Shown here in pieces: positions 1-45,653 of a DNA stretch of 45,653 nucleotides. The position numbers were made by a program, and so were the translations under genes. Each line of letters opens with the position of its first letter. The first letter of the stretch is position 1. The stretch is from the IMG/VR virus record IMGVR_UViG_3300042802_000002, one strand, 5' to 3'. The DNA is from a virus. Under the pieces are notes generated by a model that made no database searches, was not told the DNA's origin, and saw only the letters and a list, made by a program, of their open reading frames with translations.

Positions 1-127
1 TACATATATCGTCCTCTACATAGGAATAGTGCAGCTTTTTTACTACAAAATTAGGAGATTGGAGTAAATGCTCGACCACTATCCTGTCAAAGCTAGAAAT
101 ATCCATAGTGCCGTCCTCTGATACTGT
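1..127. repeat. Terminal direct repeat, left copy (identical to 45527..45653)
   Basis: Direct comparison: bases 1..127 read the same as 45527..45653. A minus-strand ORF (45426..45632) runs through the repeat, so the left copy holds a truncated duplicate of its 5' end. Confidence 0.9.
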
Positions 128-2070: not shown

Positions 2071-2117
2071 CTAGCTTTTAAGCTAGAAAAAATCTAAAAG
2101 GAGAGTGTTAAATAATG
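2071..2117 (+). repeat. Intergenic repeat copy 1: palindrome CTAGCTTttAAGCTAG followed by a conserved Shine-Dalgarno/start context
   Basis: About 47 nt, nearly identical to 2608..2654, ending at the ATG of the downstream gene. Confidence 0.7.
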
Positions 2118-2564
2118 AAAATTACAAAGTTTGATATCAGGTTAATCAAGGAGAACGAGGTGGATTATCAGGCAATAGATAACGAGAAAATCACAAACCC
2201 AATAGTCGCAGCTGAATTCTTCAACAAGGTACTAGAAATGGATATCAGAGGTCAGGAAGTGTTAGCAATGGCGACATTAGATGTCAAAAATAATATAACT
2301 GGAGTTTTTGAGGTCCACAAAGGCGGCCTTTCTTCTTCAATTGTAGAACCTAGAACAGTTTTTCAGCGGGCAATAATGCAAAATGCTGCAGGTATAGTTT
2401 TGTGCCATAACCATCCAAGTGGCGACCCAATGCCGAGCGGCGATGATGTCAGCATAACAAAAAAATTAGTCAAAGGTGGCGATATATTAGGAATTAATGT
2501 TGTAGATCATATTATTATAGCTGATAGTCAATATATCAGTTTCAAGGAAAAAGGTATAATCTAA
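2115..2564 (+). CDS. RadC-like JAB/MPN domain protein
   Basis: 149-aa ORF; C-terminal region LCHNHPSGDPMPSGDDVSITKKLVKGGDILGINVVDHIII matches the RadC-like JAB signature (HxHPSG ... S..D ... DH). Confidence 0.75.
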   Translation: MKITKFDIRLIKENEVDYQAIDNEKITNPIVAAEFFNKVLEMDIRGQEVLAMATLDVKNNITGVFEVHKGGLSSSIVEPRTVFQRAIMQNAAGIVLCHNHPSGDPMPSGDDVSITKKLVKGGDILGINVVDHIIIADSQYISFKEKGII

Positions 2565-4387: not shown

Positions 4388-4621
4388 ATGAAGGTATTAA
4401 GATATTTTGACGGCGAATATAAAATCGCTATATCAGAATTAACAACAGACCAAGCGGCCAGAATATTAACAGCACTAGATCAGGTAGACAGCGAATTAGC
4501 AGATGAAATCAGAACAGCAATTAAGGAGGGCAAAAATGCACGAAATCACAAAAAAAATCAAAGAATATATGGAGGAAAGAAATCTCAACCAGCAGGAAAT
4601 GGGAAAGTTAATCGGCGTTAG
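4388..4621 (+). CDS. Hypothetical protein (3' end overlaps the next gene)
   Basis: Start chosen at the internal ATG preceded by AGGAGGTGG; the track ORF 4346..4621 extends further upstream. Confidence 0.45.
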   Translation: MKVLRYFDGEYKIAISELTTDQAARILTALDQVDSELADEIRTAIKEGKNARNHKKNQRIYGGKKSQPAGNGKVNRR

Positions 4622-4829
4622 TAAAACTCATATGTCAAAGATAATGAACGGCCACCAGGACCCAGGCAGCAGAATGACCAATAAATATTATAAACTACCA
4701 GGTATCAAAGAAAGAGAAGCTATAGAACAGACAAAACAGGTAATAGATGATTTATGGTTATCAGGCCAGATTGATGAGCCTGCAGCCAAAAAATTGGTTA
4801 AGGCTTTGCAATATGACAGCGATAACTAA
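4536..4829 (+). CDS. XRE-family helix-turn-helix DNA-binding protein
   Basis: Start chosen at the ATG preceded by AAGGAGGG; HTH-like segment NQQEMGKLIGVSKTHMSKIMNG. Confidence 0.6.
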   Translation: MHEITKKIKEYMEERNLNQQEMGKLIGVSKTHMSKIMNGHQDPGSRMTNKYYKLPGIKEREAIEQTKQVIDDLWLSGQIDEPAAKKLVKALQYDSDN

Positions 4830-4917: not shown

Positions 4918-5078
4918 TTCTCCTGTTTTTCTAATAGATCATTAATATTGTCGGCTTCCTTCTTCTCCATTTGGTGCAGCTCCCAAAACCCTTCTAGTCC
5001 TTTCCTGCGGGCTTGTTCTCTAGTTAGGTTATTCCAGCGTGTAATATTAACTACCTCCTTTGCTACCACCTGCAGCAA
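4896..5078 (-). CDS. Hypothetical protein (uncertain)
   Basis: 60-aa ORF whose 3' end overlaps the terminator hairpin. Confidence 0.3.
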   Translation of the reverse strand: MLQVVAKEVVNITRWNNLTREQARRKGLEGFWELHQMEKKEADNINDLLEKQENKEKDQD

Positions 5079-5125
5079 TAAACATTACTATAAAACATAT
5101 CATTACTAACCAGCGGGCTATTTCA

Positions 5126-5686
5126 TTAATCATCTTCTGCTGCTACCTTCTCCGCAGCTTCCTCTGCTATCCTGTCAATCATATAATTAGGCAGTCCTGG
5201 ATATTCTTCTCTCAAATCTTCCTTAATTTTTGTAAGGTCCATTAGTCCTCCTTTGCTAACTTCATCAGGTATCGGATCAACGCCCGCTCTTTTTTCTTGA
5301 GTTCCTGCCTTCTCTTTGCTAACTTTTTGTATTCTTTCAGCTTGATTACTTTTTTGTTCATTTCCCGTAACCTCCTGATATAATACATCATAATATCCAT
5401 TAATACTGTCTATCTGTTCATCAGTAATAACAGTAACCACCGACCAACCTGACCACAATCCGCTGCTATCAGGTGTCAATACTGAAAACACCAGCTTTTC
5501 ATTAATTTCGCCTGTAAAAAATAAGTAAAACGATTGATTTTCTATTACATACGGCTTAATCCCCTGCCTTAACTTAGGGAGAAAGCGGGTAGATATATAA
5601 CCCGCTATTTTTGTTTTCTTCCAAAAAACCTCTACTCTTTCAGTCCATCTATTTTGAGCGTGATTTGTAACTCTGATTTTGAACAT
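5126..5686 (-). CDS. Hypothetical protein
   Basis: 186-aa ORF in the co-directional early block. Confidence 0.6.
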   Translation of the reverse strand: MFKIRVTNHAQNRWTERVEVFWKKTKIAGYISTRFLPKLRQGIKPYVIENQSFYLFFTGEINEKLVFSVLTPDSSGLWSGWSVVTVITDEQIDSINGYYDVLYQEVTGNEQKSNQAERIQKVSKEKAGTQEKRAGVDPIPDEVSKGGLMDLTKIKEDLREEYPGLPNYMIDRIAEEAAEKVAAEDD

Positions 5687-5976
5687 TATTCGTCCTCCCT
5701 GCTCCCGAATAGGCCCCCTTTTCTTGCTTTGATTTTCTCTTTCAAAGATAAATCGTACAGAAGAATAAAAACATCTTCTATTCGTCTTTTCATTTCGATT
5801 GAGATTTTCTCCAGACTATAACCTTCCTCCCACATCTTAATTACCCTTGGTATTTGTTCCTGCCTCCAACTAAAATCTAATTCTACATCATCTAATAAAG
5901 CTATATAGTCATTCTTCATATTTAATTTTTCTGATCTACTTCTGGTTATCTTACTACCTACAATTTTTTCCGCCAC
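5686..5976 (-). CDS. Hypothetical protein
   Basis: 96-aa ORF that abuts the next gene. Confidence 0.55.
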   Translation of the reverse strand: MAEKIVGSKITRSRSEKLNMKNDYIALLDDVELDFSWRQEQIPRVIKMWEEGYSLEKISIEMKRRIEDVFILLYDLSLKEKIKARKGGLFGSREDE

Positions 5977-5990
5977 TTAAATCACCTTTT

Positions 5991-6443
5991 TCAAAATGGG
6001 ACATCAAAATCATCTACATTAAAGTTATCATCAAATTCCTGGTCTTGTTCTTCTCCTTTCAAAGTTTTTTCTACTCTTTCTTTATGCTGATCTGATACTG
6101 ACGGCTGCTTTTCCTGATTATTGTTATTTGCAAAATCAAGAAATCTGACATTATCAGCTTTAACCTCTGGATTAATATAAGTGCGATTATCCTTCTTTGA
6201 TTTTCTAATTTGAAGCGACCCGTCAATGCCTACAAGACGCCCCTTTCCTAAGTGTCTGGCACAATTTTCAGCTAATCCTCGCCAGGTAACTATGTTAATG
6301 AAATCTACATCTCTATCGCCGTCCCGATTGGTATAATTTCTTTCACAGGCTATCCGAAAATTACACACAGGAGTACCATTTCCTGTATATCTAAGTTCAG
6401 GATCTTTTGTCAGCCGGCCAACTAAACAAATTCTATTCAACAT
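5991..6443 (-). CDS. ssb: Single-stranded DNA-binding protein
   Basis: 150 aa; N-terminus MLNRICLVGRLTKDPELRYT and acidic C-terminal tail DDFDVPF are typical of bacterial/phage SSB. Confidence 0.85.
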   Translation of the reverse strand: MLNRICLVGRLTKDPELRYTGNGTPVCNFRIACERNYTNRDGDRDVDFINIVTWRGLAENCARHLGKGRLVGIDGSLQIRKSKKDNRTYINPEVKADNVRFLDFANNNNQEKQPSVSDQHKERVEKTLKGEEQDQEFDDNFNVDDFDVPF

Positions 6444-6756
6444 CTTCTACATTCCTCCATTTTCCATAATTATTGTCAGCTATATCCTTAATATCATCTA
6501 ATAGTTCATTTAAAACTTCCCTTGGTGCATTTTCTGGTGTAAATTCTATCATTTCTGATACACCTTCAAACTCTTTGTCCATTTCTAAATGTTCATCTAA
6601 TACATTTTCGATAAAATCTTCAACTCTTGATAACTCTTTCAATGCCCGTGCTATAGGCTCGTGTTCTTTTCCTGGTGGTAAAGTTAAATCACTACTTGAA
6701 GTCTGCAGCACTTCCCTAATGTCATCTATTAAATCATCAAAGTTTACTTTCATCAT
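6433..6756 (-). CDS. Acidic hypothetical protein
   Basis: 107-aa ORF. Confidence 0.55.
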   Translation of the reverse strand: MMKVNFDDLIDDIREVLQTSSSDLTLPPGKEHEPIARALKELSRVEDFIENVLDEHLEMDKEFEGVSEMIEFTPENAPREVLNELLDDIKDIADNNYGKWRNVEDVE

Positions 6757-7115
6757 TCATCAACTCCTTTAGCTTTATTAATTGCTTTTCTCAATTTTCT
6801 TTCCCACTCATGTTTTTTACATGTGAATCCATTGTAAGAATCACACTCACAAGGTAAGTTTTCAACTATTTTTAAGCTATATTCTGCAACATTCAACAGC
6901 TCAGGTGCAGCTGTCATCAAATCAGCATTAGCAATCGCCTGTTCTTTCTGCTCTTTTTTGTAAGTTTCAATCATATCTACATATTTGAAACTATTATGAG
7001 CTAAATGGTTGCCAGGGCTTTCTATTGCATCCCCCATCCTTATTTCAATATCTCCATCCTCAATAACCCACTTCCATGGTCCTGGTGTGTGTTTACTCAT
7101 AGTTTTCTCCTCCAT
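6753..7115 (-). CDS. Hypothetical phage protein (HTPGPW ... LMTAAPELL motifs)
   Basis: 120-aa ORF; motif pair that I recall as recurring in phage proteins of unknown function. Confidence 0.55.
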   Translation of the reverse strand: MEEKTMSKHTPGPWKWVIEDGDIEIRMGDAIESPGNHLAHNSFKYVDMIETYKKEQKEQAIANADLMTAAPELLNVAEYSLKIVENLPCECDSYNGFTCKKHEWERKLRKAINKAKGVDE

Positions 7116-7299
7116 TCCCCTTCACAATTTTATAATTATTTTCCTGCAGCCATTGGTGAAATTTATATGCTTCACATTCTTTTCTGCAAAAACTCTTAGC
7201 GAAACTTTTGCCTAATTCATTTTCTTTATCATTATCAATTAGTTTTTGCATGCCACAACCAATATCTCTGCAAAATTCTCTACTCTTATATTCAGGCAT
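7093..7299 (-). CDS. Small Cys-rich protein
   Basis: 68-aa ORF containing a CxxxxC pair and a CxxxC pair. Confidence 0.5.
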   Translation of the reverse strand: MPEYKSREFCRDIGCGMQKLIDNDKENELGKSFAKSFCRKECEAYKFHQWLQENNYKIVKGNGGENYE

Positions 7300-7448
7300 T
7301 AACTGACCCCCTTCCCTGTTAATCTTTTCACTTCTTCTAATATCTCGCCTGGCTGCATATTACTAATATCTATTGTCGCCTTAATTTTCTTGCCGCCTTT
7401 TTTATAATTCAACTCTAATGTTTCTTTATTAGTTTTAGCGTGGATCAT
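7299..7448 (-). CDS. Hypothetical small protein (about 49 aa)
   Basis: Below the track cutoff; ATG overlaps the upstream stop and its stop overlaps the next start. Confidence 0.4.
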   Translation of the reverse strand: MIHAKTNKETLELNYKKGGKKIKATIDISNMQPGEILEEVKRLTGKGVS

Positions 7449-7975
7449 AAACCCCACTCCTTCAAAATAATTAGATCATCTTCTGGATAGTCGCAATCTT
7501 CCTCTGATAAAGTACCAGCTATTTTAATGCGATCCCACAAATCAGGCATTATAGTTATAGCTTTTTCATTATTTTTATTAATAAACAACCTAAAACTTTT
7601 GTCATAAGAAAATTCCATTGCCATTTGTTGAACAACTTGAAAATTTTCAACATCTTTAAAGCTGCAGCGTTCATGCAAGGTATAAGTAATACCATCAATA
7701 AGTCCTATCAAACGTTCCAACAAAAACTTGTAATTAGCAGTATAAAGATATATTATAATGTCAGATTTGATTTCTCTAATCCTTATAACTAAATCTATTA
7801 TCTGTTCAGGATAAAGCATTGGCTCTCCGCCAGTTAATATGATCTCGTCATAATCCTCAATAAAATTTAAGTTATCTTCTTCTCTGCCCTGACTAATAAG
7901 ACTTTCATAGTTGTTGCTACAGTAAGGACAATTTCTGTTACACTCAAATGTAGTTATAACTCTTGCTGACTTCAT
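7445..7975 (-). CDS. Small radical SAM (4Fe-4S) protein, NrdG/QueE-like
   Basis: 176 aa; CNRNCPYC (Cx3Cx2C) near the N-terminus and a TGGEP motif. Confidence 0.7.
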   Translation of the reverse strand: MKSARVITTFECNRNCPYCSNNYESLISQGREEDNLNFIEDYDEIILTGGEPMLYPEQIIDLVIRIREIKSDIIIYLYTANYKFLLERLIGLIDGITYTLHERCSFKDVENFQVVQQMAMEFSYDKSFRLFINKNNEKAITIMPDLWDRIKIAGTLSEEDCDYPEDDLIILKEWGL

Positions 7976-8131
7976 TTATTCCCCCTTAATTTGTTCTTTC
8001 AGCCGACTAACTTTCATCTTCAAGTTTTCATAATCCTCTTTTCTGTCGCCACCTATAGAGTGCCTGAGATAATTAACCTTCCTCTCAATATCAGCTAATA
8101 CTGATAATTCAGCTTCTGCCTTATCCCTCAT
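7976..8131 (-). CDS. Hypothetical small coiled-coil protein (about 51 aa)
   Basis: Below the track cutoff; tightly packed between two genes. Confidence 0.4.
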   Translation of the reverse strand: MRDKAEAELSVLADIERKVNYLRHSIGGDRKEDYENLKMKVSRLKEQIKGE

Positions 8132-8471
8132 TTTCTATCAACTCTGAATTTACATATTTGTTGCCGATAACCTCTAAATTATCTTCTTCAAAACAATACT
8201 CAATAAACCAATGATAAAATTCTGGCAATCCATCTTCACCAACTATTCTATAATCAGCGTTTCCTATACCCCACTCTGCTTTTATGAAATCCCCTTCATA
8301 TATTTCTTTGCCATTTTTATCTTTTAAACCGGTTGACTGCATTAATTCTGCCTTTGCTAAACTTTGAATTTCACCAAACTCATTCCACCATATCAAACCT
8401 TGTATATCTTTACCATGATATAACATTTCTTTGCTTATATCATTCCAAGCTCTGAATTTAATTTCTCTCAT
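8121..8471 (-). CDS. YopX-like phage protein
   Basis: 116 aa; N-terminus MREIKFRAW resembles the YopX family as I remember it. Confidence 0.5.
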   Translation of the reverse strand: MREIKFRAWNDISKEMLYHGKDIQGLIWWNEFGEIQSLAKAELMQSTGLKDKNGKEIYEGDFIKAEWGIGNADYRIVGEDGLPEFYHWFIEYCFEEDNLEVIGNKYVNSELIENEG

Positions 8472-8481
8472 TTTAACCTCC

Positions 8482-8661
8482 TTATAAATGAGCTATTAAA
8501 GCTATAATAAATATCAAACCTGCAATTCCTAACGGTATCCAGGTAGGAGATAACACCCACCACCAGGACCATTCAATATAACCTGTTAGCTTTAAAGTTA
8601 TAAATATTAATTCCAATGCTGACAAAAATCCTATTCCTGAACTATTATTGCTATCGCTCAT
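8482..8661 (-). CDS. Small membrane protein
   Basis: Start moved to the internal ATG preceded by GGAGG; hydrophobic segments. Confidence 0.45.
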   Translation of the reverse strand: MSDSNNSSGIGFLSALELIFITLKLTGYIEWSWWWVLSPTWIPLGIAGLIFIIALIAHL

Positions 8662-8926
8662 TTTTAACCTCCTTTTTGTACCTCCTAGTAACTGTCGATA
8701 CAGCAACACCATATATCTTTGCTATCTCTGTAAAGGTTAAATCTAAATCATTATGCAGCCTGACTATTTCACTATTAGTGAAAGGCTTTTTACGGCCACC
8801 ACTTGTTACTTTATGATCGTGCTGCAGAAAATCAAACGCTTCATCAACTGTTACTTCCTCCAGGACAGCGTATATAAGCAAGATTATGTTAATCCTTCTC
8901 TCGTCTGGAAAAGCATAATCTTTCAT
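8651..8926 (-). CDS. HTH regulator (sigma-70 region-4/ArpU-like C-terminus)
   Basis: 91 aa; C-terminal TFTEIAKIYGVAVSTVTRRYKK. Confidence 0.5.
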   Translation of the reverse strand: MKDYAFPDERRINIILLIYAVLEEVTVDEAFDFLQHDHKVTSGGRKKPFTNSEIVRLHNDLDLTFTEIAKIYGVAVSTVTRRYKKEVKNER

Positions 8927-9090
8927 TTGCTACCTCCTAAAATATATTTTTTAAATTTAACATTGAACAACAATTATTTTCCTCGTCCCACCAAGCACAA
9001 TTTTCTTTTTCGCATTTATATTCTTTATTGTTTATAATATTGTCAGCATTTATATTTTTATTATTAAATTTAAGTGGACATAATTTCATC

Positions 9091-9360
9091 TTATCCTCCT
9101 TTTTCTTCCTGTATTTTCACCACTTCCTCCAACGCTTCCAGCGGATCTGTTTTATCAGGACAGTAATCACACGGTAAATTATCATACCTTTTGTTATGCT
9201 TATAACACCATTCAACCGGTATCATAAACCCTTCCTTCTTGTGATAATAGTAAGCACAGGGGCGATCAAGCAAATACCTATGATATAAGCAATATTTGAA
9301 TTTGCTATCGCCAGGTATATGATTGTCGCACCCTGTAATCTCACATATTTTATAACTCAT
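9091..9360 (-). CDS. Cys-rich zinc-binding protein
   Basis: 89 aa with multiple Cys/His pairs. Confidence 0.5.
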   Translation of the reverse strand: MSYKICEITGCDNHIPGDSKFKYCLYHRYLLDRPCAYYYHKKEGFMIPVEWCYKHNKRYDNLPCDYCPDKTDPLEALEEVVKIQEEKGG

Positions 9361-9728
9361 TATCCAACTCCCTTAATAACTATTTCCACTCTCGGATTTT
9401 CTTTATCCACTTTGAATTTGTTGGTCCAGCCTTTATTTTGCTTCCAGCCGTCATTTTTTAGTCTGCCAGCCTTAACTAATCCGTCAAAAATAAACTTAAC
9501 TGCTGCAGCTATGTTATCTGGATCTTTTCTTTTATTTTTGCAGTACCAGGTAACCTCTAACTCTACAGCTTCATAGACTGGCAACTTCTTAGCAGGCCAC
9601 GCTACAGCATTAGTATTATCCTGTTTCATTCTTCTATAAGCCTGATAGTGTGATTTAGCAGCGTCTATTATTTCATTAAGCGAAGGTAACTCACCTTCTA
9701 TTACTAATTTTTCTGGCTCGTTTACCAT
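9360..9728 (-). CDS. rusA: RusA-like Holliday junction resolvase
   Basis: 122 aa; DPDNIAAAVKFIFDGLVKAGRLKNDG matches the RusA catalytic core pattern (DxDN ... K ... DaL.KAG ... DD). Confidence 0.7.
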   Translation of the reverse strand: MVNEPEKLVIEGELPSLNEIIDAAKSHYQAYRRMKQDNTNAVAWPAKKLPVYEAVELEVTWYCKNKRKDPDNIAAAVKFIFDGLVKAGRLKNDGWKQNKGWTNKFKVDKENPRVEIVIKGVG

Positions 9729-10081
9729 CTGCCACTATCCCCTCCCAGTAATATGTATTTAAAGAAATTTTTAACCTTCTCAAAAAAACCTTCTTCTTTA
9801 TCTTCTTGAATATGAATAACTCCGAATTTATTTTTTTGTTCAATAAAAGCCTTTTCTCTATCTTCATAAGCCTGTTTTCTTTCATCACTTAACCTGGCTA
9901 ATTCGGTATCAGGTAGATCAGCTTTAGCTTCTTTATATCTACGCCAAATTGTTGTCCTGCTGCAGCCAAATTCTTTTCCTACTTCCGAATAACTCATACC
10001 TGAAATATCAATAGCATTAACTAAATACGCTAGATCAGACTCTGAAAATTCAATTCTTTTTCCCATTTTGTCCTCCTTCAA
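9722..10081 (-). CDS. HTH DNA-binding protein
   Basis: 119 aa; SYSEVGKEFGCSRTTIWRRYKEA. Confidence 0.55.
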   Translation of the reverse strand: MKEDKMGKRIEFSESDLAYLVNAIDISGMSYSEVGKEFGCSRTTIWRRYKEAKADLPDTELARLSDERKQAYEDREKAFIEQKNKFGVIHIQEDKEEGFFEKVKNFFKYILLGGDSGRW

Positions 10082-10619
10082 TTAAATTACTATAACTATT
10101 TCTTAGCTGCTTAAACTTCTTTTTTAATCCTACGGGCAAATAATTTTCGTTAATTTCCTTATCAGTTATAGCTGCATATTCTTTCTTAAAATCATTTTTC
10201 ATATAAGATAGTTCTTTATCATCAGCTTTTGCTATAGCTGTCAATCCTCCAACCCCTCTGACTGCTAACTTTGTTCTCTTATCTAAACTATTCATAGCCT
10301 TTTCAGTACCGTATAATGCCCCGTGTACTCTTATTGCTCTTAACACCTTATCCCAGGCCTCACCTGGAAGTAATTTATCACCTGCTTTCAATTTCTCTAT
10401 TTCCTGGACCACTTCTCCAGCTGTCGGCGGCCAGGTAGGCTTATTAAGAATAAGTTTATCCACTACTGACTGCACTATTTCATAGTTATAACTGCTCAAA
10501 TAGCGGTGCCAGGCATTGACGGTTAACTTATCATCATCTTTATTTTCGCCAAATTCAAACTTCTTTTGATAAATACTGCTGATTAAAGTTAATACCTTAA
10601 AAGTCTGTTTCTTCTCCAT
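10050..10619 (-). CDS. Hypothetical protein
   Basis: 189-aa ORF. Confidence 0.55.
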   Translation of the reverse strand: MEKKQTFKVLTLISSIYQKKFEFGENKDDDKLTVNAWHRYLSSYNYEIVQSVVDKLILNKPTWPPTAGEVVQEIEKLKAGDKLLPGEAWDKVLRAIRVHGALYGTEKAMNSLDKRTKLAVRGVGGLTAIAKADDKELSYMKNDFKKEYAAITDKEINENYLPVGLKKKFKQLRNSYSNLIEGGQNGKKN

Positions 10620-11040
10620 CTTCTAACTCCCCGTAAAGTTCCTGTAGTCTTTGTGCTTTACTTTCCCCTCGGCTCTTAACGCTGATCTGATTAAGATAAC
10701 TTTCAAACTTTGTCGAAAATAGTGTTACTGGCCGCAAATATTTTTCCATTTCCTTATTACCTATCCATTCGACTGCCTTCTTATCAATCACATCTTTAAA
10801 ATCCTGCAGCCTAAAACCTTCATTCCACCTGGCTTTAATCATCTTTCTAGTTTTTTGAGTGCTGGATCTATACCTCGTACCTAATCGTTCATTGAGATAG
10901 CTGACTATTTCATCATAAGGAATGTTACTTCTGTTATAAGTGCAGCCTTTTTCATCTAATTTGTTGCCACAATAAGGACAATACTCAAAACCTTCAAATT
11001 CTAATCCTTCTAAGTTTTTAGTCCATTCACTACACGCCAT
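10597..11040 (-). CDS. Replication-associated protein with phage conserved C-terminal domain (Phg_2220_C-like) and N-terminal zinc ribbon
   Basis: 147 aa; CPYCGNKL ... C ribbon and the MIKARWNEGF ... YLRPVTLFSTKFESYL pattern. Confidence 0.5.
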   Translation of the reverse strand: MACSEWTKNLEGLEFEGFEYCPYCGNKLDEKGCTYNRSNIPYDEIVSYLNERLGTRYRSSTQKTRKMIKARWNEGFRLQDFKDVIDKKAVEWIGNKEMEKYLRPVTLFSTKFESYLNQISVKSRGESKAQRLQELYGELEDGEETDF

Positions 11041-11306
11041 TAAATACCACCACTTTTATTTAATTTTTTTATTCTTTCATCTAACGCTTTTTCTGCTTCT
11101 TTTGCAAATTCTCCATCTAATATATCTTCCTCTAATGCCTTCCAAATAATATAAGCAGTTGGACTAAAACCTAAATCAATAAACATTTCTTCATCATTAC
11201 CGTTTTGGCTTGGTATATAATCATTTATGAAATATTCAAACCAATCTTTTTCTAAATCTTTTGGCTGCTTCATATTCAATTTATCCATTATTTCAAAATA
11301 TTCCAT
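11040..11306 (-). CDS. Hypothetical acidic protein
   Basis: 88-aa ORF. Confidence 0.5.
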   Translation of the reverse strand: MEYFEIMDKLNMKQPKDLEKDWFEYFINDYIPSQNGNDEEMFIDLGFSPTAYIIWKALEEDILDGEFAKEAEKALDERIKKLNKSGGI

Positions 11307-11449
11307 TATCTACCACCTGCCATATGTTGCCAATATTTTTGAGCCTTTTCATCACTATAAGTTAATTCTCTTTCATAACATTTTCTACACTTACCAGCCC
11401 GACCTTCTTTAATAACTGTTCCACATTCGCATATTTTTTCTTTACTCAC
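11306..11449 (-). CDS. Small zinc-ribbon protein (GTG start, about 47 aa)
   Basis: Below the track cutoff; CxC ... CxxC; the GTG overlaps the upstream stop (GTGA). Confidence 0.35.
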   Translation of the reverse strand: MSKEKICECGTVIKEGRAGKCRKCYERELTYSDEKAQKYWQHMAGGR

Positions 11450-11670
11450 CTGTTCCACTTCCTCTGATAATCGTCATTTGGCTGTTCCATTGAGTTTATA
11501 TACTCGTCATATTCCTCTAAAATAGCAATCACATCATCAGCACTTTTTCCTGTGATTTCATCAGTCGCCAGCATTTCTACATTTTTATTAAGTAGTTTAT
11601 CAAAAATTTTCTGTAAATTCTTATCCATTTTTACCTCCTTGAAGATGAAGCAACACTCAAATATATTCAA
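11446..11670 (-). CDS. Hypothetical protein
   Basis: 74-aa ORF. Confidence 0.5.
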   Translation of the reverse strand: MNIFECCFIFKEVKMDKNLQKIFDKLLNKNVEMLATDEITGKSADDVIAILEEYDEYINSMEQPNDDYQRKWNR

Positions 11671-11698
11671 ATATTACTTCATCTTTATATTTATGAGT

Positions 11699-11977
11699 TT
11701 AAATCATATCAAGTAACCTTTTTATATTTTCGCTAGGATTTGAAGAACGCTTATTATCTATATTCCTATAATTACTATCTAAAAGTTTAGTCATTTCTCT
11801 ATCAAAAATAAATTTCATAAATGCCATTTTCTCAGTTTTTAATTTATCGGCAGTATAACCAAAATCTAACTCATTATTTTCTTTTCTTTCTGCTATATAC
11901 ACAATATTTCTAATATCGTCTTTCAAAACTTTCTTTTCGCCTTCATCATTAACTTTTACAATTTGATATTTACTCAT
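11699..11977 (-). CDS. Hypothetical protein
   Basis: 92-aa ORF. Confidence 0.5.
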   Translation of the reverse strand: MSKYQIVKVNDEGEKKVLKDDIRNIVYIAERKENNELDFGYTADKLKTEKMAFMKFIFDREMTKLLDSNYRNIDNKRSSNPSENIKRLLDMI

Positions 11978-13037
11978 TATCTTCCTCCTCTAAAGTTTTC
12001 TCAAAATCTTCATAGACTTCTGCCATTTCCATATCGTCATATTGATTTAATTCTTCTTCTGTCGGTCCAGCGTCCTTATCTCTCAATGAATTTCTAAGTA
12101 TCAAGTATTCTTCTTCATCTAAAGAATTAATACTTTTTGCATTAAAGCTGGATAATAAATTAAACAACATATTTTTCTTTTTCTGATCGTCCCCAATTAA
12201 CTCTTTAATTTCAGCTTCTCTTTCAGTAGTTTCTCTTTTTTCTTTCTTCTTAGGTTTATCTTTTTTTGCTTTTTTCTTCTTCTTAGTCATTTGATAGCGT
12301 TCCATTGTCAGTTTAGCTGCCTGTTTTAAATCATCTTGTTTCGCATTATCGACTAACCATTTCAGATAACCTGTATTAACTTCTTCAAGTTTCTTTCCTT
12401 GAAACTTACCAAACCATAGTACCGTTTTTTCAGGATTTTCAGAGTTCACCTTGCTATTTGTACCTTTAGGCTTACTAGTACCCCTAGAATTATCAATAAT
12501 TACATCTTCTTCTGGTATATCTTTGATTTCCTGTGTATCTGGATCATACCCTGATATTTCTTCTGCTGATGTAATAGATATATTGTAGGCTAATCTAATT
12601 ACCCTGTTAGTTGCTCTTGTTCTAGCCATAGCTTTGAGGTCTTTATCGCTACCGCTAATCATACGGTTACAATCCTGCGGACTTGCTTCCCCATACTCTA
12701 TATACGGCCTGTTATCTGGTGAACTTTCCTTCCACAACAAGGCTTTGTATTCAAAGTGTCTTTTGTTATAATCCATATTGACTGCTTCCAGCTGAATACT
12801 AACTGGTGGATCATCACTTTCGTGTGCATTTCTCTTTAATCCGCTGCTTGTTACATAAGCATTACTTCCTAATACGGTCAAGTCCCCAAAAAACGGGTCT
12901 AATCCATACTGTGCTGCAATATAAGCTAACTGCTGCTTATCCTGGCTGGATAATTTCTGCGGCCATAATCCTTCGCTTTCTCCTTTTTGTACTAATTCTT
13001 TTGATTTATCAGCAACATTCACAACATCATTTGCCAT
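11970..13037 (-). CDS. Putative recombination/DNA-metabolism protein with C-terminal LWFGKFQGKKL (DUF3820-like) motif
   Basis: 355 aa; C-terminal motif resembles the exonuclease-associated FGKYKG domain; N-terminal family not recognised with certainty. Confidence 0.4.
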   Translation of the reverse strand: MANDVVNVADKSKELVQKGESEGLWPQKLSSQDKQQLAYIAAQYGLDPFFGDLTVLGSNAYVTSSGLKRNAHESDDPPVSIQLEAVNMDYNKRHFEYKALLWKESSPDNRPYIEYGEASPQDCNRMISGSDKDLKAMARTRATNRVIRLAYNISITSAEEISGYDPDTQEIKDIPEEDVIIDNSRGTSKPKGTNSKVNSENPEKTVLWFGKFQGKKLEEVNTGYLKWLVDNAKQDDLKQAAKLTMERYQMTKKKKKAKKDKPKKKEKRETTEREAEIKELIGDDQKKKNMLFNLLSSFNAKSINSLDEEEYLILRNSLRDKDAGPTEEELNQYDDMEMAEVYEDFEKTLEEEDNE

Positions 13038-13450
13038 TAATTAACCTCCTTAGACTGTCTTTTATAATCCATATACTCCATATGTTGTAGCAAGTGTAAA
13101 CACAATTGCTTATAATCATCTACACCATTTGCACCTAATAAAGCGTCGCAAGTTGAACAACTGCCATACCAAACATAAGTCCTTATTAAATTATCTGGCT
13201 CATACCAAAAACCACCCTGACTTATTATATATATGTGTGTTCCTTGATAACTTCCAGTATTAATTGTGTGTATAAGTTTTAAATTTTCATAATCTAAATA
13301 TGGATTAATAACTTCATCAATAACTAATTCCAATAAATCTTTGTATTCAAAAGGGGTAAACCAATCGTCTCGTTCTCCTAATATTTCAACAATTTTATTT
13401 TCCAGTCTTTTTTCATTTTCAGCCCACGCTTTATTAAACTTTTTTATCAT
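13037..13450 (-). CDS. Hypothetical protein
   Basis: 137-aa ORF. Confidence 0.55.
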   Translation of the reverse strand: MIKKFNKAWAENEKRLENKIVEILGERDDWFTPFEYKDLLELVIDEVINPYLDYENLKLIHTINTGSYQGTHIYIISQGGFWYEPDNLIRTYVWYGSCSTCDALLGANGVDDYKQLCLHLLQHMEYMDYKRQSKEVN

Positions 13451-13459
13451 CTGGACCTC

Positions 13460-14011
13460 CTATACTGTTTTAACCTTAAAACTTTCCCCTCGGTCCACTA
13501 CTTTTAAACCTTCCACAAATTCGCCAGTTTCAGTATTAACTACCCTGCCATCATCAAGTATCTTATAGTTTCCGCTATCCTTAACAATTTTCTTGAGTGT
13601 TCGTTTGTCAACATCTTCCTTCACTCTTACAGCGTCGGGTATCTTCTCTTTGACGGTATCCAGCAATTCATCTTCATACTGCCATTTAGGCCGTCTTTTT
13701 CTAAACTGCAGCTTACCGAACGGTAATGAGTGAGTTTTCATTGCAGGATCTTCTTCTCTTAATTGTTGAGCATACTCAAATAACATATTCTTAAAGTTAT
13801 TAATCTTCTTTTCTAATGAAGAAGTTTCATTCTCCAGCCAATTATTAACCTGGTCTATTTGTCTTTGAGCAAGTGCTTCCTTTTCTTCCACCTGATCCTC
13901 TAATTCCTTAATCTTCTGCAAGGCCCAACAGGCCTTATCGTCCGTGTCAACTTTGAATTTTTCCTGTTCTTCTTCCTCCTGGGCTTCCTTTTTAACCAAT
14001 TCTGCTGTCAT
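13460..14011 (-). CDS. Coiled-coil protein (possibly Gam-like; weak)
   Basis: 183 aa; N-terminal heptad-rich region. Confidence 0.5.
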   Translation of the reverse strand: MTAELVKKEAQEEEEQEKFKVDTDDKACWALQKIKELEDQVEEKEALAQRQIDQVNNWLENETSSLEKKINNFKNMLFEYAQQLREEDPAMKTHSLPFGKLQFRKRRPKWQYEDELLDTVKEKIPDAVRVKEDVDKRTLKKIVKDSGNYKILDDGRVVNTETGEFVEGLKVVDRGESFKVKTV

Positions 14012-14031
14012 CTTATTCCTCCTTTTTATAA

Positions 14032-14229
14032 TTACATTAGACTATAAACTTCATATTTCATATTATTCCAATTGCCAAAAACTTTTTGAATTGTAGCTGT
14101 ACAAGGAACTTTGATTTTATTTTCTTTTTTCCATTTCCTATAATAATTCATTGTCATAGTTTCTATTTGAGGATATTTTCTTAATTTTTTTATACACTTT
14201 TCGTAAGTCCAATAAATACTACGACTCAT
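14032..14229 (-). CDS. Hypothetical protein
   Basis: 65 aa; GGAGG upstream. Confidence 0.45.
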   Translation of the reverse strand: MSRSIYWTYEKCIKKLRKYPQIETMTMNYYRKWKKENKIKVPCTATIQKVFGNWNNMKYEVYSLM

Positions 14230-14237
14230 ATTCCTCC

Positions 14238-14393
14238 TTAAAGTTTCTTTACTTTTTCTATATCCCTTTCAGAATATTTTTTACCTCTAGCACCTGCCTG
14301 CTGATAATGCTGGAATACAGAGTGCACTGCCTTATTACTATACTTGTTTCTAATCCTGTTTCTAATAATTTTGCGAGTTAAAACTTTAGGCAT
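14238..14393 (-). CDS. Small basic protein (about 51 aa)
   Basis: Below the track cutoff; GGAGGTG upstream of the ATG; K/R-rich. Confidence 0.4.
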   Translation of the reverse strand: MPKVLTRKIIRNRIRNKYSNKAVHSVFQHYQQAGARGKKYSERDIEKVKKL

Positions 14394-14434
14394 AATTACA
14401 CCTCCTTAATCTACTAAAACAAAACCAATAGGTA

Positions 14435-14638
14435 TTAAAAAATATCTTCATAGGTTACCTCTAGGCCTCTATCCTGTAAGATACTTAATATTTTATTTAT
14501 TTCACTTTGCTTGAAATCAGTTTTGCCATTAATTTTATTCGACATAGTTTTATAATCAATTCCTATCATTTCTGCTGTTTTTCCTTCTGTTAATCCTGCT
14601 TCTACTATTTTACCTTTTAATTTATAATTTGTTCCCAT
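14435..14638 (-). CDS. Cro/CI-type HTH regulator
   Basis: 67 aa; HTH-like TAEMIGIDYKTMSNKINGK. Confidence 0.6.
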   Translation of the reverse strand: MGTNYKLKGKIVEAGLTEGKTAEMIGIDYKTMSNKINGKTDFKQSEINKILSILQDRGLEVTYEDIF

Positions 14639-14700
14639 AAAAGTGTAATTTCACCTCCGATTAATATAATTAATTTCGTTTTTGTGAACTTGTTAAATAC

Positions 14701-14729
14701 ATTTTAATATACTTTTTGGTGGTTGTCAA
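14701..14729 (-). promoter_or_regulatory. Near-consensus sigma-A promoter on the minus strand (TTGACA, 17-bp spacer, TAAAAT)
   Basis: Read as the reverse complement of 14701..14729; sits upstream of the Cro-like gene. Confidence 0.45.
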
Positions 14730-14826
14730 GGGTTTTTTAGGAAAAAATATTACTTTTTGCAGAAAACAGTTAACTTTTTATACATATCTTCTTAAATCAC
14801 TCTAAATTTATGTTATTATTTTTGAA

Positions 14827-15126
14827 TTAATTGTCATTTTCCAATTCATTGTACTTTTTATCTATCTCTTTGAATGTTCTATTTAATATTTTACTAATGT
14901 TTTTTGGAGTTTCTTTTTTGCTGATTAATTCCATTAATAATTCTTCTTCCTCTGGTGTCCAATTAGTTTCCTTGCGATAATATTTACATAATTTCTTTTT
15001 CTTTGGAAAGTGAGCTGCATTATTGTACTTTTCGCAATAGTAACCATATTTGAAGTATTTGCATTGACTGCATAGTGCTTTACCTCGCTTATATCCTTTT
15101 TTAGTTTTTTCTATTCTTCCTTGCAT
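14827..15126 (-). CDS. Cys-rich protein with Myb/SANT-like C-terminal motif; first gene of the early block
   Basis: 99 aa; CSQCKYF ... C and WTPEEEELL ... ILNRT. Confidence 0.5.
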   Translation of the reverse strand: MQGRIEKTKKGYKRGKALCSQCKYFKYGYYCEKYNNAAHFPKKKKLCKYYRKETNWTPEEEELLMELISKKETPKNISKILNRTFKEIDKKYNELENDN

Positions 15127-15239
15127 TGATGTACCGGTATTCTTTTTCGCTATTTTCTACTCTCCTTTCATTAAAAGTGTAAAAGTTATCTAGTTATCCT
15201 TATTATAAAGAACTTTAATACTAATTAATCTTAGTTCAG

Positions 15240-15946
15240 GAAAAGTTGGCATAGAACACCCCTTGTGCTTAAGAAGTGTTCTATGTCTTTGTACTAATTA
15301 ACCTCAGCACGAGGTATCGACATAGTGCCATACGGCAAGTGCTCTGAGGGCTCCGCTTCTGCCTTAACACCCTATAGGAGTTTCACCTATTCACACCAAC
15401 ACCCTACCTTACGGTAACAGGAAAGGGGTGTCCGCTGTATCCCAGTGCCCACACTACAAGAGTGCTACACAATAGATTGCTGAAATTACAATCCCTGGAG
15501 CGGTTTTATTACGGATAATCTGAATTTAAACAGGACGACCAGCCTGCAGTTTTTTATAATAGTGTTATTCCTTTAACCACTAACCTTTTTGTTCTACAAA
15601 CACAAAAAGGACCTGCCAGTTCCCCGACAAGTCCTTAAATTTCTTACAGATTTTATGTAATTCACTTGCTAAGTTAGTACCTATTTGGTATAATTAACTT
15701 AACAAAAAATCTGTTACTTGTGCGAGAAGTAGCAGTCAACCCGCTAGCATTTGTAGTGCTGAGCGGATTTTCTTTTTCTATATGTAATTTTTAATTTTCT
15801 AAATTTTAAGGGGCAAAGATACCAGCTTCACCCCACCGAAAATGTATTCGGTACAAATATATTATTATGTTAAAATTATTATACTACTTTTAAATCTTAA
15901 TTGCAAATGGAAAGCCCCACATTTTTTAAGTGTAGGGCTTTTTTTA
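15240..15946 (+). ncRNA. Candidate large structured noncoding RNA (family unknown; GOLLD/ROOL-like is one hypothesis) in a GC-enriched noncoding island
   Basis: No credible ORF on either strand; local G+C clearly higher than the flanks; several strong hairpins and long-range complementary segments; ends at a plus-strand intrinsic terminator. Strand and boundaries are uncertain. Confidence 0.3.
15913..15946 (+). terminator. Intrinsic terminator (9-bp stem, T7 run on the plus strand; weaker on the minus strand)
   Basis: AGCCCCACA ... TGTAGGGCT followed by TTTTTTT; lies immediately past the stop of the last late gene (15950). Confidence 0.55.
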
Positions 15947-17245: not shown

Positions 17246-20200
17246 CTAATCACTAAGCGGCTCTTTGCCATTATATCTGCGAGCCAAATTAATTTTTTGT
17301 CTTTCTAGTTTATCTACTGTTTCTTTTTTACCCTGGCTTTGTGCGTACTTAATTTGCCTGTTGATATTAGCGAAGTGCCTAATCAGCTTATTTAGTTGTG
17401 ATAAATTCCTTTTAGCTTCCATTATTTCTTTTCGCGAGTACCTTAAATCTTCGCCATATCTCCTTGAATTATTATAATTAGCGACCATTTGAGTATATTT
17501 TTTCTGATCCTGGTACACTTTTGTTACATCTTCATAATATCCAGACTCTGAAATACTTATTAGCCGCTTAACTGCATTAAAAGGTATTATATTACTTAGT
17601 GCTTCTAAAGTGCCGTCAGCATAAGCAATAGAAGGATTAACTATTGCACTACCTCCTAAGTTAAAGAACTCATATAATCCAAATTCTTTAAGTTTCTGGC
17701 CGACATTACCTGTCAGCATAGCTTCCTCTGATATTACATTTCTACCCCGCCAGGTATCGTAAATATTCTCTCCAGATGTTAACCTTTGAACATCAGCTGC
17801 GGCCTGCAATAATGGGTTAAGATTACTTGTATTCCACGGTAATTCAGTCCAGACTGTACCTGCAACATCTCCCCATTCTCCACGGGCTGCATTATAGACA
17901 GCAGATGTAACAGCCTGTCCGATAAAGTCCTGTGGAAGTTGTATAGTTATTGCTTTGCCGTTTGCTTTCCATACAGGAACTACTAAATAAGTTTCTTTTT
18001 TATATTCGCTGACGCCTTCCATTGTTTCTGCTATCTTTTTAGCAAATTCACTATTTGGGAATAATTCGTCAGCTTCTTCTGCACCAAGCTGCAGTAATTT
18101 AGGAAGCAAACTAAATAACGCAAGTTTAAATAAGAATGTGCCTGGATTTTGCCTAAAACTTTCAGCTGCAGCAGTCCAACCTGATTTCCTAATTGTTGAG
18201 AAGATAAATAAGTTATTAGTAATTGAGTGTAAAGCACCTCTTTGCTTGAAGTCAGGAGTACCGACTCTGGTCCTTACTCTGTGTGCTAAATCGCCTTCAG
18301 ATAGATTAGTTCTCTTGCTTAACATTCTGTATCCAGCTATTTGACCTGCCATTTCTGCGACCTGACCGAAGTTGTCTAATCCTTCCCAAGCACTACGGAC
18401 TTTATCGGGTATTAATTTTTGTAATCTGCTGTGTTCTTCCCCGCTTTGTTCGTTATAATCAAAGATTTCAGTTAATAACTGTTGAGTATCATCTTCCATA
18501 TAACTGTCAGAAGGTCTATACATTCTGTCTATGGTTAACATTCTATTTCTTCTCATATATGAAATATCTTCTGATCTCTTATTGTGCCTTACATTATTCC
18601 AGGCTTCTGAAAAAGCCTTCTTGTACTCGTGGGCTAATGCTGGAATATCTTTTATACCAATTTCAGGGTTATTCATAACTGTAGCAAAGAAATCTCGTGG
18701 AATGTTAAAAATCATCCAACGTGGGTTGTGAGATACAATTATCGACTTCATACCCTGGACTATTGATAAAATAGTATTTGTAGCTGCATTAGCCTTGTGT
18801 GGAGTATATTCGTATAGGTCAGCTATATCTTTTTCAACTAAATATCCGTCTAATTTGCCGTTAACTGTAAAAGTTATTAATCCTTCATCAGCGTCTGTAG
18901 AGTCTTTAGGTATTATCTTACCGTATATTTCTTTTGTTGGTGCTTGTCTTATTGACTCTGGGGCTATTTTCTTTAATGCTTTTACTGCAGCCACCTTAGA
19001 CTCGTTAATACGGATAGAACTGATTATACTCATATCTTTAAGCATTGTGGCAACAAGTGGATTACTTATTTTCCTACCTGTACCATATTGCCGCATAATT
19101 ATATCGCCAGTACCTTCGCCAAATTCAGTATTAATATAATCTACTACCTCAAAAGTTACATACTCTTTATTATTTTTAACTTTTTCCATAGCTGCTTCTG
19201 TAAACATATTAGATTTTTCCATTATAGGTATAATTCTTTCCTGTCTTAATTGATAATATTTTTCTGCAGCGTTAACTATTTTTTGATATTTTTCTTCTCC
19301 GTATTTATCTAATAAAGCCTGCTGCATTTCTTCTGCTCTAACTGTATTAACAAAAAGTGGGTTAGCATATTTTCTTCTGTCGCCCAAAACTCTTTTATTA
19401 AATAAGAAAGAGTTAAAATCTAAGAAGTCTATATCATAATTTGATAATCCTTCTATTATCTGGCCTATATTGTAGAGGTAATCTTCTACCTCAGAGGACA
19501 TATAAGCTATTTCCTCCATTTTATTTCTTGCTTCCCTGGATAACTTTCCTTTTTCTCCAGTATCGCTGTATTCTCCCCTAAAATATTTGTAGAGGGCTGA
19601 ATTTTTATCAATAAAACTTTCTATTAGCCAATCAAAACCACTTTTTACTCCCCGTTCTCTACGCTGTATCTTCTTTTTAGTCTGTTCTACACCGTCAACC
19701 ATACCTTCTTGTAAATTGTCAAAGGTTTTGTTTATCATTTCAGATCTATTTTCCATTAAGTGCCTTACAGTATTATATGATTTTTTTACTGCTGGCTTTT
19801 CAGATATACTTTTTTGGATAAACTGACTAAATAATGGTGCTTCCTGCTGCAGCATTTCAGGATCCAAAAAGAATACACTCATAGCGTCAGCGTAAAGTTC
19901 CTCTGGGCTAAAGCGGTATTGTCTGTATTTTTTATTGCTTGTATCAAACGGTTTCCATTTTTGAGATAACCTCTGCAGCTCTTTTTTTAGTCTGGGACCT
20001 AACTTTTTACTATCTCTGATAGCGTCTAAGGTTTCGTCTTTTTCTCCTTTGTAAATAAGACTCATATTATCCATTAATTCGCCTTCATCTAACTCACTTC
20101 TAGGAATAAAATCTATTAAGTGGCCTAATTCGTGCGACATTGTCTGTGCTGCAAACTCTGGATCAACTTCTAATACTCTGACCTCTACATAGTTTTTAGT

Positions 20201-43744: not shown

Positions 43745-43833
43745 TGGTCCGTAGGGCAGGACTCGAACCTGCAAGTGCCTCCCACACAGTCGGATTTACA
43801 GTCCGCCGCCATCACCATTTCGGCCACCTACGG
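43745..43833 (-). tRNA. tRNA-Tyr (anticodon GTA), type II with long variable arm
   Basis: Manual cloverleaf: 7-bp acceptor stem (CCGTAGG/CCTACGG), anticodon loop CTGTAAA, T-arm GCAGG-TTCGAGT-CCTGC, discriminator A and encoded CCA. Confidence 0.8.
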
Positions 43834-45142: not shown

Positions 45143-45415
45143 TTATTCAACAACTTCCCAATCGTTTGATAGCATATCAGGTTGTGAAGCTAACCACCCT
45201 GGCTGCCATTTCTCGCCAGCGGTCCACATAACTATATACCCCTGACATTCTAAATCTTTCCCTTCTGGTAAAAATTTTCTGCTTCTACCATTAACCATGC
45301 TTTCTTCAATAGTTACAGGTGGCATATAGCACAGCCACATATTTTTACCATTCCAACCTTTTCGTGCAATTTTTTTGCCTTTTTTTAATTCTTCTAATGC
45401 TTTACCAAAATTCAT
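45143..45415 (-). CDS. DUF2829-like protein (Tad2-like anti-defence candidate)
   Basis: Start set at the internal ATG preceded by GGAGGG; MNFGKALEELKKGKKIARKGWNGK ... WLASQPDMLSNDWEVV matches the DUF2829 pattern as I remember it. Confidence 0.55.
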   Translation of the reverse strand: MNFGKALEELKKGKKIARKGWNGKNMWLCYMPPVTIEESMVNGRSRKFLPEGKDLECQGYIVMWTAGEKWQPGWLASQPDMLSNDWEVVE

Positions 45416-45425
45416 ATTGCCCTCC

Positions 45426-45632
45426 TTAAAACTGCTTTGAAAGTGTAAAACTAACATTATTCGGAGTCTTACAATCCTGCTTTATTCTTAAATGGCCTAA
45501 AGGAAGTCTACCATCAACACCAACTATACATATATCGTCCTCTACATAGGAATAGTGCAGCTTTTTTACTACAAAATTAGGAGATTGGAGTAAATGCTCG
45601 ACCACTATCCTGTCAAAGCTAGAAATATCCAT
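45426..45632 (-). CDS. Hypothetical protein spanning the terminal repeat
   Basis: 68-aa ORF; its 5' part lies inside 45527..45653 and is therefore duplicated at 1..106. Confidence 0.45.
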   Translation of the reverse strand: MDISSFDRIVVEHLLQSPNFVVKKLHYSYVEDDICIVGVDGRLPLGHLRIKQDCKTPNNVSFTLSKQF

Positions 45633-45653
45633 AGTGCCGTCCTCTGATACTGT
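45527..45653. repeat. Terminal direct repeat, right copy (identical to 1..127)
   Basis: Direct sequence identity with the first 127 bases. Confidence 0.9.

Follow-up and report, generated by a model that had tools for sequence, protein, structure and literature searches.

What does a phage do with a radical S-adenosylmethionine (SAM) enzyme when no neighbouring gene reveals its substrate? The question is raised by the minus-strand gene at 7445..7975 of IMG/VR virus record IMGVR_UViG_3300042802_000002, a stretch of viral DNA of 45,653 nucleotides that is referred to here, at its full length, as the window. A radical-SAM protein usually owes its functional assignment to a partner gene or to an accessory domain, and this gene belongs to a family that has neither, yet is abundant and strongly conserved. 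The reading favoured here, with a probability of roughly 40%, is that the product is a functional stand-alone radical-SAM enzyme whose substrate would be a macromolecule supplied by the host, most likely a protein.

The open reading frame (ORF) starts with ATG and codes for 176 amino acids (aa), in which the CX3CX2C triad is intact (C12-N-R-N-C16-P-Y-C19) and is followed by the SAM motif T48-G-G-E-P52, in agreement with what a first-pass annotation of the locus had read in the sequence. The cluster motif, the GGE motif and, in the predicted structure, a partial (beta/alpha) TIM-barrel, three hallmarks of the radical-SAM superfamily, are all found in the protein, which is also matched above the cut-offs by the Pfam models Radical_SAM (32.4 bits, cut-off 29.5) and Fer4_12 (27.2 bits, cut-off 22). 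The positions that carry the argument are the following:

7919..7942, minus strand: codons for C12-x3-C16-x2-C19, the predicted [4Fe-4S] ligands, located by sequence reading, by the family alignment and by the alignment with NrdG and PflA

7820..7834, minus strand: codons for T48-G-G-E-P52, the SAM-binding "GGE" motif, located in the 52-member family alignment

7493..7495, minus strand: codon for C161, a C-terminal Cys outside the cluster motif that is a Cys in 44 of the 52 aligned members

The last of these residues lies within a C-terminal C-P-x-P-x-x-E motif and is a candidate hydrogen-atom donor or substrate-side residue. The protein is acidic (isoelectric point, pI, 4.45). Megablast of the region against GenBank phages returned no match. 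The ORF is no chance reading frame, because it has 62 homologs in one search and 663 related clusters in another, and the Cys triad is conserved in the aligned members; judged from sequence, it is a real and intact gene for a predicted radical-SAM enzyme.

The family to which the protein belongs corresponds to phrog_31524, the one full-length profile match (E = 1.4e-24, residues 2-170 of 176). A word-indexed search of a database of 5.8 billion proteins retrieves the 62 homologs, all metagenomic and mostly of 165-190 aa, and an exhaustive profile search extends the family to 663 representative clusters (50% identity) at E ≤ 1e-30 and to 1237 at E ≤ 1e-10. The two marks of the family, a length of about 160-195 aa with the conserved motifs and a match over the full length of the profile, are both present in the window protein. 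On a hidden Markov model (HMM) of the family, the window protein scores 203.6 bits, and the window and 78 fetched loci all reach at least 113 bits. A single fragment scores 76 bits, the other radical-SAM genes among the fetched sequences all stay at or below 39 bits, and the E. coli proteins NrdG, PflA and QueE score 24, 9.5 and 5.6 bits, respectively. The phage proteins crAss001 gp56 (140 bits) and LoVEphage QVQ57117 (145 bits) are full-length members. The Cys triad, on whose presence in an alignment the first-pass annotation had made its claim depend, is found in 51 of the 52 aligned members; the remaining one is truncated at its N-terminus. Moreover, G49, G50, E51, Y78, A80, G95, H101 and R129 are invariant in this alignment, T48, P52, W147, P164 and E167 are conserved in at least 90% of the members, and the conserved stretches run from the Cys triad and N21 through TGGEPMLYP, YLYTA, DGxTxTLH and KSFRL to W147 and the C-terminal C-P-x-P-x-x-E. 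Most members are acidic, with a median pI of 5.9. As delimited by these sequence comparisons, this is a large, sharply bounded, phage-specific family of predicted radical-SAM proteins of ~165-190 aa; a literature search found no paper on the function of the phrog_31524/crAss001 gp56 family.

The isolated phages that carry the gene have Bacteroides or Phocaeicola as hosts, and true members also occur in cellular genomes, namely a metagenome-assembled genome (MAG) of Thermotogae, Faecalimonas umbilicata, Lachnoclostridium, Clostridiales CCNA10, Bacteroidaceae/Bacteroidales MAGs and Ruminococcus. All identifiable hosts are thus strict anaerobes, a distribution that is biased by sampling and that fits an oxygen-labile enzyme. 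Some members are longer than the norm. Among the top 150 family representatives, about 12% have N-terminal extensions of 40-195 aa, which are mutually heterogeneous, several being Cys-rich or zinc-ribbon-like and others Cys-free (P0069, P0099, P0123, P0172, P0182, P0006, P0050 and others). At L063:3953-5293, on a 104-kb IMG/VR contig, a member is fused within a 446-aa ORF to a C-terminal domain resembling class-I SAM-methyltransferases, which contains a VDFGCADG motif and is matched by several Pfam methyltransferase models at E of about 1e-5, all sub-threshold; no such fusion is seen in phage LR756501 (735 kb), whose gene is near-identical.

The search for a partner gene started from the window itself. 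Pfam scans of essentially all window ORFs of at least 100 aa detect no class III ribonucleotide reductase (RNR) and no other glycyl-radical enzyme, no FolE, QueC, QueD, DpdA or Tgt, no His-Xaa-Ser repeat protein and no second radical-SAM gene, nor does the window contain any phmmer match to the E. coli enzymes NrdD and PflB; the description of the gene as an orphan, lacking both an anaerobic RNR and the 7-deazaguanine genes, is therefore upheld. The comparison was then widened to the 79 family genes, which fall into 38 groups at 70% identity, by clustering all ORFs within ±4 kb of each. No neighbour family recurs in more than 3 of the 38 groups, either by BLASTP (E < 1e-4) or by phmmer (E < 0.01, one representative per group), and the three groups with common neighbours are the closest relatives of the window. 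The three complete carrier genomes (window, crAss001 and LoVEphage) belong to unrelated phages, and when all their ORFs are compared the only family common to them is the radical-SAM one. Likewise, when the same two E. coli enzymes were searched by phmmer against all ORFs, no match fell in any of the 79 family loci, and the annotation of crAss001 and LoVEphage lists no glycyl-radical enzyme and no Que genes; crAss001 does encode a B12-dependent class II RNR, ThyX and dUTPase. The procedure is able to detect such pairs, as NrdD was found adjoining radical-SAM genes that are not members of the family in the bacterial loci L096, L121, L128 and L132, which had been fetched only for the TGGEPML motif that they have in common with it. 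These four loci, exemplified by L121:5956-9033, hold NrdG-sized genes beside nrdD and come from MAGs of Oscillospiraceae, Clostridiales, Saccharibacteria and Eubacteriales.

Two candidate associations were followed and dropped. The glycyl-radical signature RVxG[FWY] occurs near family genes in 10 matches among 6592 ORFs, scattered as expected by chance, and zinc-ribbon proteins are not enriched as neighbours (2/70 vs 19/573, p = 0.69). The genes that do surround the family are varied: DNA polymerase A/uracil-DNA glycosylase, RNA ligase, gp32 and RecA in one set of loci; polynucleotide kinase, a phosphoribosyltransferase and ThyX next to crAss001 gp56; a resolvase and a C5-cytosine methyltransferase next to the LoVEphage gene; dCTP deaminase/dUTPase and a single-stranded DNA-binding protein (SSB) elsewhere. 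Two phages have, within about 9 kb of the family gene, an RtcB RNA ligase and another, larger radical-SAM gene of 305-320 aa (L163, LoVEphage MW660583.1, 30321..40532; L008:4557-10353); this proximity may be fortuitous or may reflect a connection with RNA repair or modification. As these comparisons of carrier genomes and neighbourhoods show, unrelated phages, all with strictly anaerobic hosts as far as these could be identified, have acquired the gene horizontally and on its own. Since no phage-encoded partner accompanies it, the substrate is expected to come from the host cell.

The predicted structure bears on what kind of substrate this could be. An AlphaFold (AF2) model built from the family alignment, with a predicted local distance difference test score (pLDDT) of 91.6 and a predicted template modelling score (pTM) of 0.88, displays the alternating strand/helix pattern of the radical-SAM half-barrel without any extra domain. 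Foldseek against a viral structure set returns as its only good matches two uncharacterised phage proteins of ~179 aa, and against the PDB it ranks viperins at the top, with target-normalised TM-scores of 0.33-0.44 and under half of the target covered; a profile search of PDB sequences gives a match limited to the first ~60 residues. Because a 176-aa half-barrel without an accessory domain would be unable to enclose a small substrate, a host macromolecule is most likely, and a protein is favoured because of the acidic surface and the NrdG-like minimal design, the acidic pI of the family disfavouring direct binding to nucleic acids. To our knowledge, the 154-aa NrdG is the only characterised enzyme of this size. 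By analogy with radical-SAM enzymology, a [4Fe-4S]+ cluster held by C12, C16 and C19 would reductively cleave SAM to a 5'-deoxyadenosyl radical, which would then abstract a hydrogen atom from the substrate; the minimal architecture suggests that the host protein would dock onto the open face of the barrel, and the outcome would be the radical-based modification or activation of this protein early in infection. Going one step further, the family may tentatively be regarded as a new functional class rather than a divergent activase, that is, as a self-sufficient early effector, traded among phages, that would carry out an undescribed radical reaction on a host target; disabling a defence and hijacking a host protein, nucleic acid or the SAM pool are candidate roles.

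Several observations weigh against a host protein as the substrate, or against the reasoning that leads to it. The neighbourhoods of the family are rich in genes of DNA and nucleotide metabolism, DNA methyltransferases included, and together with the methyltransferase-like fusion in L063 they fit a nucleotide or nucleic-acid substrate equally well. The viperins, which rank first among the structural matches, act on nucleotides. The similarity to NrdG is no better than that to MoaA, and the (D/N)GPG loop is absent from the window protein. QueE offsets its small size by homodimerisation, which by analogy could also compensate for the small size here. Lastly, a phage-encoded partner that has diverged beyond detection by phmmer and BLASTP is possible.

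These points give substance to the idea of an enzyme that modifies nucleotides or nucleic acids, possible and on the unlikely side, in which the radical would act on a free (deoxy)nucleoside triphosphate, as in viperin, or on DNA, tRNA or rRNA, giving a base or sugar modification of use to phage replication or to the protection of phage DNA. The location of the gene in DNA- and nucleotide-metabolism modules in many phages argues for it, as do the fusion to a class-I methyltransferase-like domain and the Cys-rich, zinc-ribbon-like N-terminal extensions of several members. However, the fusion is a single case with sub-threshold Pfam matches, zinc-ribbon genes show no enrichment among the neighbours, most members are acidic, no nucleotide kinase, transferase or glycosylase module accompanies the family in a conserved way, the viperin model (NF038283) gives 23.7 bits against a cut-off of 180, and the structural match covers less than half of viperin. 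An effector of counter-defence or host takeover, acting through SAM itself or through a small signalling molecule, is improbable. It would either consume SAM reductively, as a radical analogue of the T3 SAM lyase that starves SAM-dependent restriction or BREX, with C161 quenching the radical, or destroy a defence signal. Its appeal lies in a profile typical of anti-defence genes (a single-gene module in an early operon, without a partner, patchily distributed and horizontally spread among unrelated phages), in a minimal architecture for which SAM is the sole need, in the non-cluster Cys kept in 44 of 52 members and in the presence of a Tad2-like anti-defence gene in the same genome. Conversely, the argument is purely inferential, no homology to a known anti-defence protein was found and PADLOC yields only weak matches to the pVip core; the conserved W147, C161, P164 and E167 suggest a specific substrate site, and radical-SAM turnover, which is slow and spends one low-potential electron per SAM, would be a poor SAM sink compared with a lyase.

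The first-pass annotation had likened the protein to NrdG-type activases or QueE, and a canonical activase of the NrdG/PflA type working on the class III RNR or the pyruvate formate-lyase (PFL) of the host, or a QueE making 7-carboxy-7-deazaguanine, is by now very unlikely. The size is near that of NrdG, Fer4_12 matches, some members are named "organic radical activating enzyme" by the Joint Genome Institute (JGI), the hosts are anaerobic and anaerobes normally possess NrdD and PFL. Moreover, HHalign aligns the family profile with E. coli NrdG at 95.8% probability (E 7e-9, 90 columns), with 59% for PflA and 51% for E. coli QueE, the last over 16 columns at the cluster motif. In calibration runs, however, the unrelated MoaA reaches 95.1% (E 3e-8, 71 columns) and BioB 7.8%; because the MoaA control gives the same probability, the similarity to NrdG reflects mostly the common N-terminal cluster/TGGEP module, and NrdG was downgraded as the specific nearest relative. 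Every curated cut-off is missed several-fold by the window protein: 31.2 bits vs 267.9 for HxsC, 20 vs 325 for MoaA, 30.1 vs 131.15 for NrdG2 (TIGR02495), 17.3 vs 126.1 for NrdG (TIGR02491) and 24 vs 260.1 for QueE (TIGR03963), with all matches confined to the N-terminal 60-115 residues. The same scan over the 52 members returns HxsC in 41, NrdG in 19, NrdG2 in 18, viperin in 17 and MoaA in 15, none near its cut-off, and PflA (TIGR02493) in 4 (best E 3.5e-5); the best NrdG E-value across the family is 8e-8. The HMM classification into subfamilies that the first-pass annotation had proposed as a check thus reaches no curated model and leads to phrog_31524 instead. In a direct alignment, R5 corresponds to the Arg of the (D/N)GPGxR loop and N21 to the Asn after the third Cys of both NrdG and PflA, a correspondence at the flanks of the cluster motif that counts in favour both of an activase and of a host protein as the substrate. 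The N-terminus reads M-K-S-A-R5, and only its Arg aligns with NGPGTR in NrdG and DGPGIR in PflA; as no more than four residues precede this Arg, the protein has no counterpart to the glycine-rich part of the loop with which PflA contacts the glycyl-radical loop of its substrate. The narrower suggestion that a host glycyl-radical enzyme is activated keeps a place among the candidates and is weakened by the absence of any such enzyme from the 79 loci and the three complete genomes, in a search that did detect the control pairs, and by the class II RNR that crAss001 encodes for itself. As for QueE, its match is limited to the cluster motif, and no QueC, QueD, FolE or Tgt goes with it in the window. 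A decaying, non-functional remnant of a radical-SAM gene, which the short length and a Pfam score barely over the cut-off might have suggested, is effectively refuted by the conservation data: full length is kept over 663 clusters, the catalytic motifs are invariant, a compact fold is confidently predicted and a 99%-identical copy is found on independent contigs.

The gene is framed by two tiny ORFs, which the first-pass annotation had described as translationally coupled to it:

7976..8131, minus strand: upstream ORF of 51 aa, whose stop abuts the radical-SAM start; homologs only in groups 3 and 7; no Pfam match

7299..7448, minus strand: downstream ORF of 49 aa, a genuine small gene whose start overlaps the radical-SAM stop as ATGA; found conserved only in groups 2, 3 and 7

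7981..7987, minus strand: Shine-Dalgarno-like AAGGGGG, 5 nt upstream of the radical-SAM ATG and inside the end of the upstream ORF

The contacts themselves are real in the sequence: the TAA stop of the upstream ORF (7978..7976) directly precedes the radical-SAM ATG at 7975, the sequence of this junction being GAAAGAACAAATTAAGGGGGAATAAATGAAG, and the ATG of the downstream ORF overlaps the radical-SAM TGA as ATGA and has its own Shine-Dalgarno-like GAAGGAG before 7448. A conserved functional link does not follow from them. The mini-ORFs are kept only in the 3 closest of the 38 groups, and in locus L002 the homolog of the downstream one is located 1.4 kb upstream of the radical-SAM gene; they were therefore rejected as a partner or a substrate peptide, and the coupling is best explained as ordinary phage gene packing. 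Other small ORFs of 50-89 aa in the early operon are Cys-rich (7093..7299, 8937..9089 and 9091..9360, all minus strand); among them, the 68-aa ORF 7093..7299 is kept in the closest relatives and, in L004 and L015, is fused to the product of the next gene.

The first and last 127 nt (1..127 and 45527..45653) have the same sequence, the overlap expected of a circular assembly, and the window thus holds a complete genome of about 45,526 bp; the 99%-identical copy of the gene is found on three IMG/VR contigs, each of about 44.8 kb. The genome is that of an SU10-like podophage, with a major capsid protein, portal and adaptor of SU10 type, a large terminase, an ORF of 2607 aa and an M15 peptidase. 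The radical-SAM gene lies inside a long minus-strand early/replication operon that runs in the order Gam, a 355-aa exonuclease-like protein, Phg_2220_C, G39P helicase loader, a helix-turn-helix (HTH) protein, RusA, YopX, radical-SAM, phrog_1273 and SSB. No terminator-like site is present anywhere in 5000..15500, and promoter-like sites are, overall, not above the shuffled expectation in number; the best of them is weak evidence:

14701..14729, minus strand: best promoter-like site, TTGACA-17-TAAAAT, at the head of the minus-strand early operon; 11/12 consensus match

Elsewhere in the genome, a 104-aa ORF at 45143..45457 (minus strand) has a Tad2-like domain (PF11195, Thoeris anti-defence 2; 87 bits vs a cut-off of 25), through which the phage probably counters Thoeris-type defence. 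A 613-aa protein at 30550..32391 (minus strand) carries WD40 beta-propeller repeats (PF00400 at 141 bits, and matches to many other propeller families) and is encoded within the SU10-like structural module, with the adaptor on one side and a 529-aa tail-like protein on the other, which is unusual for a phage virion module. The 2607-aa ORF (17246..25069, minus strand) stands directly downstream of the structural genes, has no Pfam match and no RNA polymerase motif of the DxDGD type, and may code for an ejected internal virion protein. One tRNA-Tyr (GTA) gene is located among small ORFs upstream of the terminase genes (43745..43833, minus strand). Lastly, a RadC-like JAB domain protein (2115..2564, plus strand) and a Cro/CI-type HTH protein (4503..4829, plus strand) form a small divergent module on the strand opposite to nearly all other genes, and no integrase was seen in the ORFs scanned.

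The interest of the family goes beyond this genome. One of its members is found in a cultured crAss-like phage, crAss001 (gp56), which together with Bacteroides intestinalis provides a system open to experiment, and crAss-like phages are among the most abundant viruses of the human gut. The protein is also a tractable target, being a single polypeptide of 20 kDa whose substrate would already be in the host cell, and the identity of this substrate would either uncover a new form of phage control over anaerobic hosts or widen the range of chemistry known for minimal radical-SAM enzymes. If the family is indeed a new functional class, it would contain the smallest known radical-SAM enzyme apart from NrdG.

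Among known systems, NrdG is treated as the closest analogue in size and architecture, and not as the family of the protein. Like NrdG and PflA, the window protein is a very small half-barrel without accessory domains, with a CX3CX2C-x-N motif, an Arg 7 residues before the first Cys and a motif of the SGG(D/E)P type. Unlike NrdG, the family has the conserved C-terminal W...C-P-x-P-x-x-E region, and, in contrast to the true NrdG genes of the control loci, none of its 79 genes has a glycyl-radical enzyme nearby. With QueE it has in common that both are small radical-SAM enzymes found in some phages, and weak matches to phrog_2076 and TIGR03963 are present; it differs in that HHalign aligns the two over the 16 residues around the cluster motif alone and that the window genome lacks DpdA along with QueC, QueD, FolE and Tgt, none of which is annotated in crAss001 or LoVEphage either. 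In comparison with viperin and pVip, which have a full architecture of ~280 aa, the window protein is about 100 residues shorter, too short to include the viperin C-terminal region that helps to bind the nucleotide.

HxsC (TIGR03977) is the commonest weak NCBIfam match across the family (best E 2.3e-10), always over the N-terminal core, and in the window protein it is limited to profile positions 27-117 of 292. This weak match over the radical-SAM core accounts for the "HxsC-like radical SAM" label that automatic annotation has given to crAss001 gp56 and QVQ57117.1. HxsC is the maturase of the bacterial HXS anti-phage system, is longer than 340 aa, has two Fe-S cluster domains, with cysteines 342/345 in the second, and acts together with HxsA, HxsB and HxsD, the four genes forming a fixed operon (PMC13128918). 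The window protein, by contrast, has 176 aa and one cluster motif and no hxsA, hxsB or hxsD nearby, and membership of HxsC was rejected on length, cluster number, score and operon context. The public label is thus misleading, as the protein is neither NrdG, QueE, viperin nor HxsC. Its true counterparts are crAss001 gp56 (AXQ62699.1) and LoVEphage QVQ57117.1, which are only about 29-31% identical to it, yet belong to the same family over their full length (178-180 aa), with the same motifs and the same early/replication position. Rather than a new kind of system, the gene of the window represents, together with crAss001 gp56, a well-defined variant of the radical-SAM superfamily that is specific to phages.

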